From: a virus | DNA length: 12,174 nt | Strand: one strand, 5' to 3' | Virus record (IMG/VR): IMGVR_UViG_3300045988_033060 | Span: 1-12,174 of that record | Part shown: positions 1-12,174 of the stretch, piece after piece | Layout: the number at the start of each line of letters is the position of its first letter | How positions within the stretch are numbered: position 1 is the stretch's first letter | Translations under genes and position numbers: made by a program | The notes under the pieces: generated by a model | Told to the model about the DNA's origin: nothing | Seen by the model: the letters and a program-made list of their open reading frames with translations, nothing else | The model's database searches: none

Positions 1-149
1 AAAGGTACACAAAGCACGCAGATTTAACATTTCCCAACACATATTTAACAGATGCTAACACACTTTGGCACGTTTTTTGCTATGCCACATTTACGATTCT
101 TTAACATATTTAGCACACCGCAACTTTTGTTAAACTTTCATAAAAATAA

Positions 150-230
150 TGTTTCACGTGGAACGGTGGCAAAGTGATTGTTTCACGTGGAACAAATGAG
201 GGGTATGTTATAAATGTTTCACGTGGAACA
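150..230 (+). promoter_or_regulatory. Array of three direct copies of the dyad motif TGTTTCACGTGGAAC(A) in the left ITR (candidate protein-binding or iteron-like sites)
   Basis: The GTTTCACGTGGAAC core occurs at 151-164, 180-193 and 216-229, giving 29- and 36-bp spacing. All three copies share the same orientation and the same deviation from perfect dyad symmetry (TTTC versus GGAA half-sites). Confidence 0.7.
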
Positions 231-285
231 TTGCAGGTGTTAACAACAGTTAATTTATTTCTTTAAGACTTTTTAACGAAAATAA

Positions 286-317
286 TTTGGTTGGTTCGCA
301 AAAACGTGGTATCTTTG
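286..317 (+). promoter_or_regulatory. Bacteroidota-type promoter inside the left ITR (-33 TTTG, -7 TAnnTTTG), driving the plus-strand arm
   Basis: TTTG lies at 286-289, followed by 20 nt and then TAtcTTTG at 310-317. The predicted transcription start site (TSS) falls at about 322-325, at the ITR boundary. The first ATG is at 364. Confidence 0.65.
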
Positions 318-363
318 CACCGTTATTAAGAAACATAAGTTGAACAATTAAAATTATAAAATT

Positions 364-3468: not shown

Positions 3469-3912
3469 TTAAACGTTACCTTTAATAGTTACCATAATAA
3501 TACTACCTGTTTCATTCAACAACCCTTTATTCGGAAAATCTAGTTTTCTGATATTCGGGCGAGCATCAACCACATTTGTACGGTTTGAAAGATATTTGTT
3601 ACCGTTTTCACTTTTCGTTAACGTTGCGGTACTGTTTAAGATAATATCCTTATAAGTAAACAGAACGTCAATACGCAAACGAACTGTACAAATATCACCG
3701 TCTTGCTGTTTCTCAGAAACGAAATAATAACGGTTCAAACTTTCGATGTAAACGTAATTGAAAGTTACAGGCGTGCGAGTTCTGAAACGTACAACAGGTG
3801 TTAACACGTTGAATGTCGCATTTAACACGCCCGTATATTCTTCGTTTACCTGTAAATTCTTGTTTACTTCGTTGGGTTTGCCATCGTAAACGAAAGTTTT
3901 AATTTTAATCAT
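3469..3912 (-). CDS. Tail protein (147 aa) resembling the N-terminal domain of the phi29 gp9 tail knob
   Basis: It lies directly upstream of the 600-aa tail gene, separated by 3 nt. FNYVYIESLNRYYFVSEKQQDGDICTVRLRIDVLFTY recalls gp9 [41 protein letters not shown] (from memory). Confidence 0.45.
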   Translation of the reverse strand: MIKIKTFVYDGKPNEVNKNLQVNEEYTGVLNATFNVLTPVVRFRTRTPVTFNYVYIESLNRYYFVSEKQQDGDICTVRLRIDVLFTYKDIILNSTATLTKSENGNKYLSNRTNVVDARPNIRKLDFPNKGLLNETGSIIMVTIKGNV

Positions 3913-5759: not shown

Positions 5760-6804
5760 CTTTATTTTCTTTTTCTTCTGTTTCTTCTGTTTCTTCTGTT
5801 TCTTCTGTTTCTGTTTCTGGTTCTTCTGTTTCTTCTGTTTCTGTTTCTGTTTCCTCAGTTTCTTGCGTTTCTTCTGTTTCGTTTTCCGTTACAGGGTCAA
5901 CGTCTTCTGTTTCGGTGTGGTCGTGCCCGTCTTCTGTTGCTTTTAGCAACGACAAATAATTTTCGTGTTCGATTTTCCAACTTGACCCCAAAGTTACGGT
6001 TATATCCGTGCCGAACATTTCGTTAACACGTTTCACACCCTCAACACGTTCTGTTAACATTGAATCAACGAACGGCATCAAAGCGTCTATATTCATTGAA
6101 ACTTCTTGCGTGTTCAAACGTTCACGTTTCATATTATAGTTTGCATTCAAACCCAAATCGTTAAACAGGCTAGCTTTGTAGTACTGCAACAGTTCAATTA
6201 ATTGACCGATTTGTTGGTTTCCCTGTGTCGGTGGGGTCTGTAAGTTCACACCTTTGAAAAAGGCATTTTCACCGATAACAGAAAAATCACCGTTCAAAAT
6301 CTTCTGTAAGAATGATTCTGCGCTCTGTTTGGTCTTATCGTCACTTGCAGAAATAAGCATTGTGATTCTAGTTAAAATACTAGCCAAATTAAGCGTTATT
6401 GTTGCATCGGTGTAAAGAACTCCATATTTGCCAATTAACGGCAAAAGTGAATCCGCAAACGGTGTGTTGTTGATAACGACAATATCGGAATCGATTTTGA
6501 ACGTTTTGTTCAAATTTAACCACGGGTTTGCTACAACGTAATCTTTGCCGTGATAATAGGCATCGCATTCTCCACTCCGTGTGCCCTGTAACGCATACAG
6601 ATTCCCGTTTACTTCTGCTATTCCAACGTTACCAGATGTTTGCAGAATCTTTTCAAGTTCAACGGGCGGCATTGTTTCGGGTGTACCCGTATATTCAAAC
6701 ATCTTTGAAGTCATACAAAGAACTCGCTGCATAAACGTGAATAATGCTGCATCTTTGTTTTTAACTTCTGTTTGATACCTGTTATATAAGTTTTCCTTTT
6801 CCAT
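5749..6804 (-). CDS. Portal (upper collar/connector) protein, phi29 gp10-like, with an acidic Thr/Glu-repeat C-terminal tail
   Basis: [28 protein letters not shown] parallels gp10 [47 protein letters not shown] parallels NANLEKKERMVTDEVSSN (from memory). The C-terminus reads ...[37 protein letters not shown]. Confidence 0.85.
   Translation of the reverse strand: [351 protein letters not shown]
5760..5885 (-). repeat. Short tandem repeats (gtttcttct / gtttct units) encoding the E/T-rich portal tail
   Basis: The plus strand reads ttcttctgtttcttctgtttcttctgtttcttctgtttctgtttctgg... This region also produces the artefactual FFCFFC ORF on the plus strand. Confidence 0.9.
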
Positions 6805-6998
6805 TACTTTACAATCGTTTTAATTAAGGTGCAAAGTTCTGTTAACACCTTAGTGTTACTTTGCACGGTTTCGTTCAACTTGTCGGTTTCCTGTTGGTGG
6901 CGTTCGTTCTGTTTCTCCATATAAAAGAAAAGGGCGATACAAACAGCTATAGGAAAACCAACGTTACTGATTAATGATACTATTGCATTTGAGTCCAT
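6804..6998 (-). CDS. Small single-pass membrane protein (64 aa); holin candidate and first gene of the late operon
   Basis: It has one hydrophobic segment (AIVSLISNVGFPIAVCIALFFYM) followed by a charged, helical C-terminus. The GFPIAV-containing N-terminus recalls YvrJ-family small membrane proteins (from memory, unverified). Its stop overlaps the portal start (TAATG). Confidence 0.45.
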   Translation of the reverse strand: MDSNAIVSLISNVGFPIAVCIALFFYMEKQNERHQQETDKLNETVQSNTKVLTELCTLIKTIVK

Positions 6999-7030: not shown

Positions 7031-7062
7031 CAAAGATAGGAAAATTATCTGGCAACACCAAA
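7031..7062 (-). promoter_or_regulatory. Internal Bacteroidota-type promoter for the structural (late) operon
   Basis: On the minus strand, TTTG (7062-7059) is followed by 20 nt and then TAtcTTTG (7038-7031). The spacing and the -7 box are identical to the ITR promoters. The ATG of the 64-aa gene is at 6998. Confidence 0.65.
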
Positions 7063-7106
7063 TAAACCAGGGGAAAAAGTGTTTCACGTGAAACATTTTT
7101 AACCCC
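7058..7106 (-). terminator. Extended hairpin after the ATPase gene (candidate terminator of the early operon) built around the dyad motif
   Basis: GGGGAAAAAGTGTTTCAC|GTGAAACATTTTTAACCCC (7070-7106) can fold into a stem of about 17 bp with small bulges. On the minus transcript it is followed by UGGUUUAUUUGG. It starts 12 nt after the stop at 7119. Confidence 0.5.
7080..7095. promoter_or_regulatory. Perfect 16-nt palindrome TGTTTCACGTGAAACA (candidate operator or activator site upstream of the late promoter)
   Basis: It has the same core as the six ITR copies but is fully symmetric. Its centre lies about 60 bp upstream of the predicted late TSS. Confidence 0.65.
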
Positions 7107-7118
7107 TGTTAACAGATA

Positions 7119-8258
7119 TTAAGTAATAATGTTACTTCTTGCACTTGCCATCAAGTAATTACGCACAATTTCGCCAATTTCGTTATTCTGATAAAATACC
7201 TTATCTGTGGCAAAATACTTAGTTATCTGTGATTCCACATAACTTGCAGTACTCAACAACTTTCGTTTGTAGTTTGGTTTGCCGTTCATTTGCAACGAAT
7301 ATATCAAACTGTTGTCCGTATCCTTAATAGGGGTTGTTTTGTTGTGAATGTAAATGAAGTTGTTCACCCCAGTTTCTTCGTCTTCCAACTGAATAACGTT
7401 GCCCTGTAAGGTCATTTCGTTAAACTGAATGTAGAATACAAACAACACGTCATTTGGTTTATATTTTACAGGCAAATGAGGATATACAGCGAGTTCCCAT
7501 TTACCGCCCGTAATCATTTGCAGATTTTCGTTATCGAAACAGAAATATTTGTTGCTCGCTTTGTGTTTAACAATCGTGCTACAATATTCTACTGCAACCG
7601 TTGCACCGTGTTCACCGAAACGGTAAATATCAATAGTTCCCTGTTCCATCACTCGCACCTGTTTCAATCCCATTTCTGAGAAATAAGGGCAAAACTGATT
7701 CACCGTATTACCTAACATAAAAACTTTAACATCGTTTCTCTGTCTGATAATTGTACTCAACAGGTTCATATATAACATAAATTCATCGGGCAAATAGTAA
7801 CGTCTTGTTAGGAACTCATCAAAAACTATTGTAGTTATGTTTGGATAACTGCTAGATTTTTCGTGTTCCTGTTCTGAAAGACAAAACCCGAAACAGAACG
7901 GTGTGTTATCGGGTACACGCTTTTTGGTTTCGGGGTCATAAGACGAAAGAAACCATTTACCCGAAATATAAAAGACTTCGTTAAACTTACCGCCTGTTAA
8001 TTCCTGTATCACGCCATTTGCAACGTGATTTGCAAACAAACTTTCGGCACGTTTGCCCCTCAAGTCTTCACGCCATCTACGAATATACGCCATTTGCTTT
8101 CCTGTGCGCAAATATTCTTTGATACCGTACAATAACGTTGCATACGTTTTACCGTTTGAACGTTCACCGAAAATAACGTTGTAATCTGCATTCTTTGATA
8201 AAATGCGATTCAACGTGTAAAATTTCGGTGTTTCTACCTTTTCTTTCTTCTGTTTCAT
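7119..8258 (-). CDS. DNA packaging (encapsidation) ATPase, phi29 gp16-like
   Basis: Walker A FGERSNGKTYA parallels gp16 IGARGIGKSYA. GKQMAYIRRW parallels GEQFIYVRRY. Walker B YPNITTIVFDEFLTR parallels YPNVSTIVFDEFIRE. Confidence 0.9.
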   Translation of the reverse strand: MKQKKEKVETPKFYTLNRILSKNADYNVIFGERSNGKTYATLLYGIKEYLRTGKQMAYIRRWREDLRGKRAESLFANHVANGVIQELTGGKFNEVFYISGKWFLSSYDPETKKRVPDNTPFCFGFCLSEQEHEKSSSYPNITTIVFDEFLTRRYYLPDEFMLYMNLLSTIIRQRNDVKVFMLGNTVNQFCPYFSEMGLKQVRVMEQGTIDIYRFGEHGATVAVEYCSTIVKHKASNKYFCFDNENLQMITGGKWELAVYPHLPVKYKPNDVLFVFYIQFNEMTLQGNVIQLEDEETGVNNFIYIHNKTTPIKDTDNSLIYSLQMNGKPNYKRKLLSTASYVESQITKYFATDKVFYQNNEIGEIVRNYLMASARSNIIT

Positions 8259-8262
8259 ATTA

Positions 8263-10467
8263 TTATTTCTTTAATCTGATTCCCATTAAATAATTAATAT
8301 AAAGAACTGAAAGACTTAAAGTGTACCCCGTTGGTTCTAAGTGAACACCCGTTAACGTGTCGTAACTTGAAACAGTACCTTTGTAATCTTTTATAGTTCC
8401 TGTCTGCTCATAATCAATATACGTGTGTATGTTCTTACCTGTTGCCGATGGTGGTATATCCAGGTAATTTGTGAATGCATCAAAGATTCCACTTTCACCA
8501 AACGTTTCTAGCATATACGGGATAGCCGATTTTTTGTTAACGCCCGAAACGGTAATTGAGTAATCGTAATCTTTGCCGTTTACTGTAAGGGCGTTTTCTT
8601 CTTGTACCATATAGCGTTTTGCACCTAGAGTTTTGAAACGGGTGTAACGCCCCTCATAATCCCAAACACCCAACGGTTTTGCGATTCCCTTTATCGTGAC
8701 GGGTTCAACCTTTTCAAAGGGTATTTTGTGAAACTTACAGGCGGCACGCAATTTCTGTTGTGCTAAATCGTTGTACGCTTTGAAATATTCTTTGTGGGCA
8801 TCACCGTTCATAATTTTAACGGAATCGGTATCACTGTATATGTAATCGTCACCACATTCCGAAATACCCGTGAAAAGATTTCTACGGGCATAAGCGGTAA
8901 CATAAATACCCCACGGGTAAAACAAAAAGCGGTTTTTGCTATCATTGTATTTATTCAACATTTCTAACTGCTTTTCGCCTGTAAGGTGTTCAATATCCCA
9001 CGTTTCACCGTCACACAAAATTTCATCACGCAACGGGTTTGTAACACACATACCGTAACAACTGTTTAGCATTTCTTTGCTATTTAAATACTCAACCTCT
9101 TTGCCCTTTACACCCTTTAGTTTTGTTTTCATTTCATACAGGTGCAAAATAGATTCTACAAATTCAGTTGGCAAATATTCTTTTCTGTAACAAATCATTT
9201 GCCCAATTCGTATTTGTTCCCACGTGTAAAACTGTGAAAACACTTTGTAATCTATTTCGGTAATGGTCATACATATTTTCTTTGCACAAACCAATCGCCC
9301 GTTATTCTCAGAAACGTTTTCTTTCACGAAACATTTACTAACAGAAATCGGATTCTCGTTTTCTGATTTCGCAAATATGTTTGTTATCTCTACATCGAAC
9401 ACGCAACAAAATTTGCTAATCATAAACTCAAATTGCTTCATTGACTTTATAGGTACAATAACACCTGTGCTCATCGGAAACCTTTCTGAAACCATCACAT
9501 AAGGGTAACTGCTGGTAAAATCGTAACTGTCAACGTTTTCAATTACTTCATCGGTGTATTTTGCATTTGCGTGCGTAAAACCGCCTGAAAACGCCCGTTG
9601 TAACATCGCAAATTCTTCCATACCTGTTATATTTAAGTTGTGAATCTTATCAATATATTTAAAGTTTGGAATTGTTTTGCCTGTTTCGTCAGTTGTTTTA
9701 AAACAAACAGAACGGCAATATTTACGAACAAACCCCGTTTTTGTAATCGGCAAACGTGTTATTCCTTTGTAACGTTCCAATAGTTCCTGGATGTAGCACA
9801 TCACCACTTTTATATCATTCAGACAGTAACCGATTTCTTTTTGTGTTAACGGGGTTTTACTGTGACGTAACAAACTATAATCCAAATCACCAACTAACTT
9901 TTCACATTTGTAGATGTGTAATTGTTCGCCTAATTTCGCCAACGAATAACCCGATAATAAGTAACTGCATCGGAACTCTAAACCCGTTTTTGTTATTCCG
10001 TAAATTGGTTTTCGTAAATCAATAGAGAAAACTTTTTCCCATTCCAACAACTCACGGAAAAATTGGAACTCATAAGCCAAATTGTGAACATATATAATAA
10101 TTCGTTTCTTTGGGCAAAGTTCTAATATATCCACTATACTGGATAACATTTGCAAAAATTCTTCCCACGTTCGCCCCATTATGCAAAAACCGTTTATTCC
10201 AAATTGCCAAACATACATTAAAGAACACTTTTCCATTTTAGTTTCTTTACCGCCTAATTTCATATAGCGTTCGTAACTGTATGTTTCCCCGTATTCATCA
10301 CGGTAAAATGATGTAGTTTCAATATCGAAAGATACAGGAACATTCAAGAACTTTTCGCCCTTATTGTTTCCTGTAAAATTCTTTTCGTTAACAGCCAAAG
10401 ATAAAACCTTTGCAATATCTTTAGGCGTGTAAACTTCTGTATGTAGTTCAAAGGGTATTTTCTTCAT
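8263..10467 (-). CDS. Family B DNA polymerase, protein-primed type
   Basis: Exonuclease motifs: ExoI FDIETT, ExoII HNLAYEFQF, ExoIII YCLNDIKVV. Polymerase motifs: A DSYDFTSSYPY, B KEMLNSCYGM, C YSDTDSV, plus KxY in GAKRYM. The gene sits in a linear ITR genome directly downstream of the candidate terminal-protein gene. Confidence 0.95.
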   Translation of the reverse strand: MKKIPFELHTEVYTPKDIAKVLSLAVNEKNFTGNNKGEKFLNVPVSFDIETTSFYRDEYGETYSYERYMKLGGKETKMEKCSLMYVWQFGINGFCIMGRTWEEFLQMLSSIVDILELCPKKRIIIYVHNLAYEFQFFRELLEWEKVFSIDLRKPIYGITKTGLEFRCSYLLSGYSLAKLGEQLHIYKCEKLVGDLDYSLLRHSKTPLTQKEIGYCLNDIKVVMCYIQELLERYKGITRLPITKTGFVRKYCRSVCFKTTDETGKTIPNFKYIDKIHNLNITGMEEFAMLQRAFSGGFTHANAKYTDEVIENVDSYDFTSSYPYVMVSERFPMSTGVIVPIKSMKQFEFMISKFCCVFDVEITNIFAKSENENPISVSKCFVKENVSENNGRLVCAKKICMTITEIDYKVFSQFYTWEQIRIGQMICYRKEYLPTEFVESILHLYEMKTKLKGVKGKEVEYLNSKEMLNSCYGMCVTNPLRDEILCDGETWDIEHLTGEKQLEMLNKYNDSKNRFLFYPWGIYVTAYARRNLFTGISECGDDYIYSDTDSVKIMNGDAHKEYFKAYNDLAQQKLRAACKFHKIPFEKVEPVTIKGIAKPLGVWDYEGRYTRFKTLGAKRYMVQEENALTVNGKDYDYSITVSGVNKKSAIPYMLETFGESGIFDAFTNYLDIPPSATGKNIHTYIDYEQTGTIKDYKGTVSSYDTLTGVHLEPTGYTLSLSVLYINYLMGIRLKK

Positions 10468-11224: not shown

Positions 11225-11590
11225 CTACTTATCTACAAAGGTAATACCGTAACACTTTTTGGCGTGCGATTCATATTCGTAAATTGTGTAACCGACTTTG
11301 TTGGCTTTGATAGCGTCCACCGCATCACTATTTGCGAGAATCTCTCTAACTGTGTCACCTGTGAACTGTGGTAAGTTAACTAATCGCTTGTTTTCTGCGT
11401 CAATGATTACAGGTGAATCGCCCAACTGCGATTTGTGAACGTACATACCATTAATAGGGTGTACTACATCACCGCCACCATCTTTCTCATCGTTGTAAAT
11501 ATCGGTCAACTTTACAAACGGAAAATCGGTCGTATCAATACCGAAACTAGTCTTATTGAAAGTACTAGCGAAACTAAAACCTTTAGCCAT
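11225..11590 (-). CDS. Early protein (121 aa); possible abundant DNA-binding or SSB-type replication accessory protein (positional guess only)
   Basis: The ORF is clean, lies upstream of the TP-Pol pair and is followed by an attenuator. Its size and position resemble phi29 p5/p6. No motif recognised. Confidence 0.3.
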   Translation of the reverse strand: MAKGFSFASTFNKTSFGIDTTDFPFVKLTDIYNDEKDGGGDVVHPINGMYVHKSQLGDSPVIIDAENKRLVNLPQFTGDTVREILANSDAVDAIKANKVGYTIYEYESHAKKCYGITFVDK

Positions 11591-11805: not shown

Positions 11806-11857
11806 AATTTTACCTAATTTAAATTGTTAAACTTATATTGTTTCTTAAAACACGGTG

Positions 11858-11889
11858 CAAAGATACCACGTTTTTGCGAACCAACCAAA
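11858..11889 (-). promoter_or_regulatory. Bacteroidota-type promoter inside the right ITR, driving the replication/packaging operon
   Basis: It is the mirror copy of 286-317. On the minus strand, TTTG (11889-11886) is followed by 20 nt and then TAtcTTTG (11865-11858). Confidence 0.65.
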
Positions 11890-11944
11890 TTATTTTCGTT
11901 AAAAAGTCTTAAAGAAATAAATTAACTGTTGTTAACACCTGCAA

Positions 11945-12025
11945 TGTTCCACGTGAAACATTTATAACATACCCCTCATTTGTTCCACGTGAAACAATCA
12001 CTTTGCCACCGTTCCACGTGAAACA
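11945..12025 (-). promoter_or_regulatory. Array of three copies of the dyad motif in the right ITR
   Basis: GTTCCACGTGAAAC occurs at 11946-11959, 11982-11995 and 12011-12024, the reverse complements of the left-ITR copies. Confidence 0.7.
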
Positions 12026-12174
12026 TTATTTTTATGAAAGTTTAACAAAAGTTGCGGTGTGCTAAATATGTTAAAGAATCGTAAATGTGGCATAGCAAAA
12101 AACGTGCCAAAGTGTGTTAGCATCTGTTAAATATGTGTTGGGAAATGTTAAATCTGCGTGCTTTGTGTACCTTT

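Follow-up and report, generated by a model that had tools for sequence, protein, structure and literature searches.

The bacterial chromosomal centromere site parS has the consensus TGTTNCACGTGAAACA, which is bound by dimers of ParB (Spo0J) and has been given for Bacillus, Corynebacterium, Caulobacter, Hyphomonas, Burkholderia and others (PMC7022226, Table 1). A gut Hi-C study found ParABS together with consensus parS in 12 of the 12 genomes examined, including that of Bacteroides caecimuris (PMC10197239). The site is also found in a phage: phi29 carries five parS sites that are bound by the Spo0J of its host, and Spo0J is involved in the transfer of the phage genome into the prespore (PMC2731898). 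We found no report in the literature of parS in phi29-like phages other than those of the Bacillus group, and a 2024 review in which Bacteroidales hosts are proposed for some phi29-like metagenomic genomes of 11-14 kb never mentions parS. Our own sequence scan of phi29 showed four exact copies of the 16-mer TGTTTCACGTGGAACA, at 10445, 15903, 17243 and 18760, the third of which starts 1 nt past the stop codon of gene 16 (the packaging ATPase). The same kind of scan gave two parS sites in Nf and none in GA-1.

Centromere sites are also carried by the prophage-plasmids P1 (ParB/parS) and N15 (SopB/sopC), in which they let the phage genome partition like a replicon. Both of these phages are temperate, with genes for a ParA and a ParB of their own, and their centromere sequences are different from the parS described here.

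Genome organization

The window, by which we mean the whole stretch of DNA that was analysed, is a complete phi29-like genome of 12,174 bp with inverted terminal repeats (ITRs) of 323 bp (Table 1). Its 15 open reading frames were compared with Pfam and PHROGs and include Pfam matches to DNA_pol_B_2, Podovirus_Gp16, Phage_connector and Phi29_MCP; the encoded proteins comprise a type B DNA polymerase, a gp16-type packaging ATPase, a connector, a Phi29-type major capsid protein, an M15 peptidase and a holin-like protein. No lysogeny genes were found among the 15 ORFs with either resource. Four genes (364-1626) lie on the plus strand and read inward from the left ITR, and every other gene lies on the minus strand and reads from the right ITR. 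Megablast of the window against phage records gave no match, profile searches of the PDB gave no significant match, and Rfam found no family in the window, with no pRNA recognized.

Table 1. Coordinates and strands of the features of the window.
Feature	Position	Strand	Remarks
Left ITR	1..323	+	Inverted repeat versus 11852-12174, 100% identical
Right ITR	11852..12174	-	Mirror of left ITR
sigma54-type promoter consensus TGGCACGTTTTTTGC (TGGCACG-N4-TTGCT, perfect)	66..80	+	Inward-facing, between terminus and parS array
sigma54 consensus, mirror	12095-12109	-	
parS L1, TGTTTCACGTGGAACG	150..165	+	15/16 versus consensus TGTTNCACGTGAAACA on complementary strand; outer-position mismatch
parS L2, TGTTTCACGTGGAACA	179..194	+	Reverse complement of TGTTCCACGTGAAACA; full consensus match; identical to phi29 sites
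parS L3, TGTTTCACGTGGAACA	215..230	+	Full consensus match
Internal parS, TGTTTCACGTGAAACA	7080..7095	.	Perfect palindromic consensus
parS R3	11945..11960	-	Mirror of L3
parS R2	11981..11996	-	Mirror of L2
parS R1	12010..12025	-	Mirror of L1
Second palindrome, TGTTAACA	238-245, 1165-1172, 3799-3806, 6052-6059, 6840-6847, 7107-7114, 11930-11937		
Bacteroidota-type promoter TTTG-N20-TATCTTTG	286..317	+	Inner edge of left ITR; would drive 364-1626
Bacteroidota-type promoter TTTG-N20-TATCTTTG	7031..7062	-	Upstream of holin-like, connector, capsid and tail genes
Bacteroidota-type promoter TTTG-N20-TATCTTTG	11858..11889	-	Right ITR
Intrinsic-terminator-like hairpin with parS tip	7058..7108	-	Stem 7108 to 7068, then U-rich GUUUAUUUGG 7067 to 7058
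Packaging ATPase (gp16-like)	7119..8258	-	Pfam Podovirus_Gp16, E = 2e-23
121-aa early protein	11225-11590	-	

The left ITR contains, besides the three parS sites, the terminus AAAGGTAC, TTAACA repeats, a sigma54-like element and the early promoter. In a relative (L094, positions 1-45) the remnant of an Illumina adapter (…gctcttccgatct) is followed directly by AAAGGTACGC; because this remnant abuts AAAGGTAC, the first base of the window is the true terminus of the genome. The terminus resembles that of phi29, AAAGTA. The hexamer TTAACA is enriched about eightfold in the ITRs, with six copies per 323 bp. A second palindrome, TGTTAACA, occurs seven times in the window against 1.05 expected, a count reached in 0 of 200 shuffles; the copy at 238-245 and its ITR mirror lie 7 bp from a parS site, and that at 7107-7114 lies 11 bp from one.

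Identification of the repeated dyad as parS

The starting point was an earlier note, made from the sequence alone, of a dyad present in three copies in each ITR and in one internal copy, and a direct scan found every coordinate in it to be exact. The 14-mer GTTTCACGTGGAAC occurs without mismatch at 151-164, 180-193 and 216-229 on the plus strand and at 11946-11959, 11982-11995 and 12011-12024 on the minus strand, and the internal copy is the palindrome TGTTTCACGTGAAACA. Scanning the whole genome for the 14-mer with up to two mismatches, as the note had proposed, gave 15 strand-matches against 0.18 expected, which was reached in 0 of 200 shuffles; the observation is real and strongly non-random. 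As the ITRs are 100% identical, the right-hand copies are not independent of the left-hand copies, and the independent units are therefore the three ITR copies and the one internal copy. Seven of the nine CACGTG hexamers in the genome are the cores of these sites, and the other two (1929 and 9221) were confirmed to lack the flanks. The near-match GTTTCACTTGCAAC at 2864-2877, within the tail gene, has no CACGTG core and looks like a chance occurrence.

A full-text literature search for the core sequence led to papers on ParB and parS. Counting the N, five of the copies fit the consensus at 16 of 16 positions and two at 15 of 16, with the outermost base off, and the sole asymmetric base of the ITR sites TGTTTCACGTGGAACA falls on the degenerate N of the consensus. 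Judged by sequence, the seven dyads are chromosomal-type parS sites and not a novel operator. This identity supports the proposal in the earlier note that the motif is the recognition site of a dimeric DNA-binding protein. The note had also regarded a frequent host-genome word as an argument against such a site; the motif is indeed a host-genome word, but this identifies the site rather than refuting it. Since the motif is chromosomal parS, the relevant phi29 precedent is parS/Spo0J and not p4 or p6.

The window resembles phi29 and Nf in being a phi29-like protein-primed podovirus (from its domains, ITRs and the shared 16-mer) that carries several orphan copies of TGTTTCACGTGGAACA and no ParB of its own, and it resembles phi29 in having one copy directly after the packaging ATPase gene, the placement of the phi29 site at 17243. 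It differs in the number and arrangement of the sites: phi29 has ITRs of 6 bp and three of its four exact sites are inside genes, whereas the window has seven copies, all of them intergenic, with six in tandem arrays inside the ITRs and the internal copy fused to a terminator hairpin. With chromosomal parS loci the window shares the identical consensus and the clustering of sites within a few hundred base pairs to kilobases; on chromosomes ParB-CTP dimers are expected to bind at the site and to spread from there, and by analogy the same is predicted for the window. Unlike those on chromosomes, the sites here lie on a 12-kb linear viral genome, presumably capped by terminal proteins, that has no parA or parB of its own, at a density that is orders of magnitude higher.

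The internal copy

The internal parS starts 23 nt past the stop codon of the packaging ATPase gene, between the replication and packaging genes and the morphogenesis and lysis genes and beside a promoter, which confirms its earlier assignment to a promoter-adjacent early/late junction. On the transcribed (minus) strand the hairpin CAGGGG..AAAA.UGUUUC-ACGU-GAAACA.UUUU.CCCCUG has this parS at its tip and runs on into GUUUAUUUGG; the fold (86 nt) has an energy of -26.2 kcal/mol (z = -4.5). The lower stem alternates among relatives between CGGGGG/CCCCCG and ACAGGG/CCCTGT, two pairs show 20 double changes among 60 relatives, and in L225 the same parS is enclosed by a quite different lower stem, CCCCGGAA/TTCCGGGG. 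The internal copy thereby combines a GC-closed hairpin, a U-tract, a position at the end of the replication and packaging operon and compensatory changes, all of which are expected of an intrinsic terminator. A simple consensus terminator scanner did not call the hairpin, probably because the stem has bulges. Where the internal copies of relatives are asymmetric, their orientation always retains a G-U pair in the transcript.

The U-tract of the terminator runs into the late promoter (7062-7031), and the parS lies 17 bp upstream of the -33 element (25.5 bp from centre to edge), so that bound ParB could affect this promoter. The internal element is thus a composite of terminator and parS with the next promoter immediately downstream, and its putative role as a terminator is better supported than its predicted role in loading ParB. 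The perfect internal site and the imperfect ITR sites had been suggested to differ in affinity and to give graded occupancy. This is not supported: the difference between them is the degenerate N, and in view of the hairpin composite a role as a terminator tip accounts better for why the internal copy is perfectly symmetric.

Conservation among relatives

IMG/VR holds at least 366 relatives, of which the best 80 are mostly from one metagenome dataset. The clusters that hold the homologues of one early protein have more than 1,500 member sequences, which shows the phage to be very common. Both the number and the position of the sites are conserved in relatives, a check that the earlier note had proposed. 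Among 83 close relatives parS is present at the left end in 72, at the right end in 75 and internally in 71; one to three sites per end are usual and two or three are commonest (60 and 61 genomes), with a start-to-start spacing of 26-29 or 35-39 bp, and the internal site lies 23-27 nt past the ATPase stop codon in 69 of 80 IMG/VR relatives. The conservation profile of the ITR among close relatives is uninformative, the entire ITR being conserved at that distance. In the clade of the window the GGAAC half-site always faces inward (112 versus 0 at the left end and 130 versus 0 at the right end). The asymmetric end-located parS of L278 (160-210) is reversed, with TGTTCCACGTGAAACA on the inward strand, and because of this opposite orientation the inward rule reflects shared ancestry and not a general constraint.

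An intermediate clade (L018, L055, L059, L094 and L106; capsid protein 74-79% identical) has exact sites in different flanks. Genomes with unrelated ITRs (L218, L234/L235, L244, L247 and L278) have one to four parS sites near each end, and in L218, L234, L244, L247, L278 and the L018 clade the sites lie about 30-300 nt from the ends despite the unrelated ITR sequences. Two to six sites are present in the very distant phi29-like genomes L003, L116 and L048, which have Shine-Dalgarno sites and capsid proteins that are only ~23% identical; in L003 and L116 a tandem pair lies between a 349-aa gene, apparently that of the ATPase, and a holin-like gene. In a scan of viral contigs for tandem parS, at least 82 of the 120 matches listed were phi29-like, from at least four lineages. 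Tandem parS thus appears to be widespread among phi29-like phages.

Tandem parS was also seen in larger viral contigs of 18-94 kb that are not phi29-like (L302, L299, L267, L275 and L311), and ParB gave no match in the ORFs scanned beside the tandem pair in these five sampled contigs. The pair in L302 (8259-8305) is just upstream of the large terminase gene, and that in L299 (8701-8745) precedes an ORF whose terminase match is weak and below threshold.

Astrithrvirus isolates from Salmonella, Acinetobacter, Pectobacterium, Enterobacter and Vibrio have capsid proteins with ~58% identity to that of the window. These five cultured proteobacterial isolates have no parS, even when two mismatches are allowed. 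The three enterobacterial hosts are expected to be without ParABS; the hosts of Acinetobacter phage Phanie and Vibrio phage K58 g2 are expected to have it, and because these two phages are also without sites, parS is optional in the lineage.

Promoters and host signals

Three Bacteroidota-type promoters, for which the consensus is quoted in PMC7366714, are present, one ahead of each of three transcription units. That in the right ITR would drive the genes for the 55-aa, 121-aa and 220-aa proteins, the DNA polymerase and the ATPase; the 220-aa gene is in the position of a terminal protein and is a candidate for it. No Shine-Dalgarno motifs were found anywhere in the genome. The sigma54 consensus recurs in the ends of relatives, divergent genomes included, with 85 copies facing inward, none outward and one internal, and L094 has up to three tandem copies. 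A sigma54-dependent early promoter would be unusual for a phage. The promoter signals, the missing Shine-Dalgarno motifs and the inward sigma54 consensus point to a Bacteroidota host.

The closest relatives in bacterial assemblies, L212 and L213 (whole contigs of ~11.5 kb; capsid protein 91-92% identical), are binned into Melainabacteria/Gastranaerophilales MAGs, contrary to these signals. The bins of relatives contradict one another (Melainabacteria, Prevotella and Clostridia; 40 relatives, many phyla), and host calls from MAGs suffer from the unreliable binning of phage contigs; the presence of relatives in such bins may be a binning artefact or may reflect a persistent association with cells.

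Unlike phi29, the window has host signals that are Bacteroidota-like and not those of a spore-former, and Spo0A boxes are absent (no TGTCGAA in the window against 1.5 expected; phi29 has six). Neither of the sporulation features of the phi29-type system, a spore-forming host and Spo0A boxes, was found for the window, and spore entrapment is therefore probably not the purpose of the sites here.

Candidate binding proteins

No ParB, helix-turn-helix or any other DNA-binding domain was found among the 15 ORFs with Pfam and PHROGs. As no ParB gene was detected, the sites are orphan host-type sites that would borrow a host protein. The earlier note had left the binder as either an orphan small protein or a host factor; the host factor is now the most likely, and the small proteins have lost ground, as no DNA-binding domain was found in them and that of 121 aa is SSB-like. 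Five small ORFs have no assigned family, and no homologue of p4 or p6 was found among the small ORFs (both with Pfam and PHROGs). The window resembles the p4 and p6 sites of phi29 in having repeated, putative protein-binding sites near the early/late switch and the genome ends, but its motif is unrelated to the p4 sites, is the parS consensus and probably has a host protein as its binder, so that the analogy to p4 or p6 drawn earlier is unsupported.

The 121-aa early protein is a member of a large family, which comprises 426 clusters at 50% identity. Its AlphaFold model from a deep alignment has a pLDDT of 85 (43 with a shallow alignment), and the best structural matches of the model are the OB-fold single-stranded DNA-binding proteins (SSBs) PrgE, PRD1 P12 and LEF-3; these matches are weak (E = 0.02-0.08), with a consistent theme. 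The model suggests that the protein is probably a phage SSB, the counterpart of phi29 p5. The family co-occurs with end-located parS (seven of 11 genomes with the family versus one of 24 without), which is most simply explained by shared ancestry.

Other types of site were considered for the dyads and rejected. The motif fits TGT-N10-ACA and three dyads could seat a hexamer, as in a sigma54 enhancer; the ITR dyads, however, are downstream of the element at 66-80, and there is no sigma54-like site near the internal dyad. Reading GGAAC/GAAAC as the -35 element of an ECF-sigma promoter was abandoned as no CGT-type -10 element was seen by eye at the right spacing. A restriction-site context for CACGTG was set aside, seven of the nine hexamers being merely parS cores. 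The LacI/CcpA, CRP/FNR, Rex and LexA boxes were dropped because of their half-site spacing, which we take to misfit the motif.

Proposed role of the sites

We propose that the seven sites are orphan host-centromere sites that would load host ParB onto the phage genome and so provide a segregation handle, a reading to which we assign a probability of roughly 60%. After injection, host ParB-CTP dimers would nucleate at the internal site and at the three sites of each ITR and, once closed into clamps, would slide outward; the entire 12-kb genome would be inside the normal spreading range of ParB. In vitro, ParB clamps accumulate only on DNA that is closed or capped (PMC7053999), and the covalently attached terminal proteins could serve as end caps that keep the clamps from sliding off. 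The phage genome would then be a mini-centromere, which host ParA, and possibly SMC, could position and, if lytic growth is held back, could pass on to the daughter cells. This would be the non-sporulating counterpart of the prespore entry of phi29 through parS and Spo0J. The outcome in segregation or persistence is extrapolated from phi29, where it is sporulation-dependent; the phi29 sites are mostly intragenic and away from the termini, so the clustering in the ITRs here could reflect a different use.

A broader form of this proposal is that orphan parS arrays are a general hallmark of small protein-primed (phi29-like) phages across bacterial phyla, rather than a device for sporulation in Bacillus, and give a ParB-dependent carrier state in non-sporulating gut bacteria. 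Lytic, integrase-free phages would in this way gain plasmid-like inheritance, for example in Bacteroidales. We put this forward tentatively and regard it as rather doubtful.

Loading of ParB could also serve ends other than segregation. The sites might act as decoys that pull host ParB off the chromosome as the genome copies reach hundreds, with the disturbed origin segregation, SMC loading or cell division benefiting the phage. A density of seven sites per 12 kb, compared with 1-10 per whole gut-bacterial chromosome (PMC10197239), the lack of a ParB or ParA of the phage itself (Pfam and PHROGs) and the retention of the sites across many strictly lytic-looking lineages are all consistent with such a sponge. 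The only experimental precedent, phi29, nevertheless points to segregation of the phage genome and not to damage to the host, and parB is non-essential in many species (PMC7022226, Table 1), so its titration may do little; we consider this explanation improbable.

It is likewise unlikely that ParB acts here chiefly as a regulator or origin organizer, silencing or timing phage promoters, or controlling protein-primed initiation through a nucleoprotein complex near the termini, as a host-supplied stand-in for the p4, p6 or Spo0A of phi29. The sites are all intergenic and separate the termini from the early promoters or precede the late -33 element by 17 bp, which would suit this role, as would the lack of a detectable p4 or p6 homologue, and Pseudomonas aeruginosa ParB is reported to repress promoters adjoining parS3 and parS4 (PMC5521831). 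The centres of the ITR sites are, however, ~100-165 bp upstream of the presumed early start, a long distance for direct repression, and parS is intragenic in phi29 and in the L116 clade, so that the function shared among these phages is not promoter-specific.

That the binder is instead a dimeric regulator encoded by the phage, one of the orphan proteins of 55 to 121 aa that would link the late promoter with those of the ITRs as p4 or p6 might, is very improbable. The five family-less ORFs and the co-occurrence of the 121-aa family with end-located parS could be taken in its favour, but the motif does not differ from the universal host parS or from that of phi29, phi29-like phages with none of these small proteins have it as well, and the one co-occurring family is modelled as an SSB-like OB-fold, with a co-occurrence confounded by shared ancestry. 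Equally hard to credit is that the dyads are purely RNA or single-stranded DNA hairpins (terminators, or processing or replication pause sites) with an incidental match to parS: the conserved hairpin and U-tract tipped by the internal copy, its compensatory lower-stem changes and the retained G-U pair would fit, but the ITR copies have neither lower stem nor U-tract, a 6-bp AT-rich stem is weak by itself, the end-located asymmetric site of L278 is reversed, and a 16/16 match in many unrelated flanks cannot be incidental.

Implications

The loading of host ParB as a segregation handle remains our preferred reading. What is known here is the parS element, with its direct precedent in phi29; what is new is its arrangement as ITR arrays and its fusion to a terminator, in an abundant lineage of gut phages whose hosts are probably non-sporulating bacteria. 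What was an anonymous repeat now stands for a specific and testable host-phage interaction, with host ParB as the predicted partner. Tandem parS close to the termini of a linear contig is a practical marker of phi29-like genomes and implies a host with canonical ParABS. These 12-kb phages of the human gut are very abundant. If it is true that ParB loading gives a carrier state that can be inherited, the phi29/Spo0J paradigm would no longer be limited to spore-formers and would provide a mechanism by which phage and host coexist in the gut over the long term, which could explain the persistence of these phages and their very high prevalence in humans.
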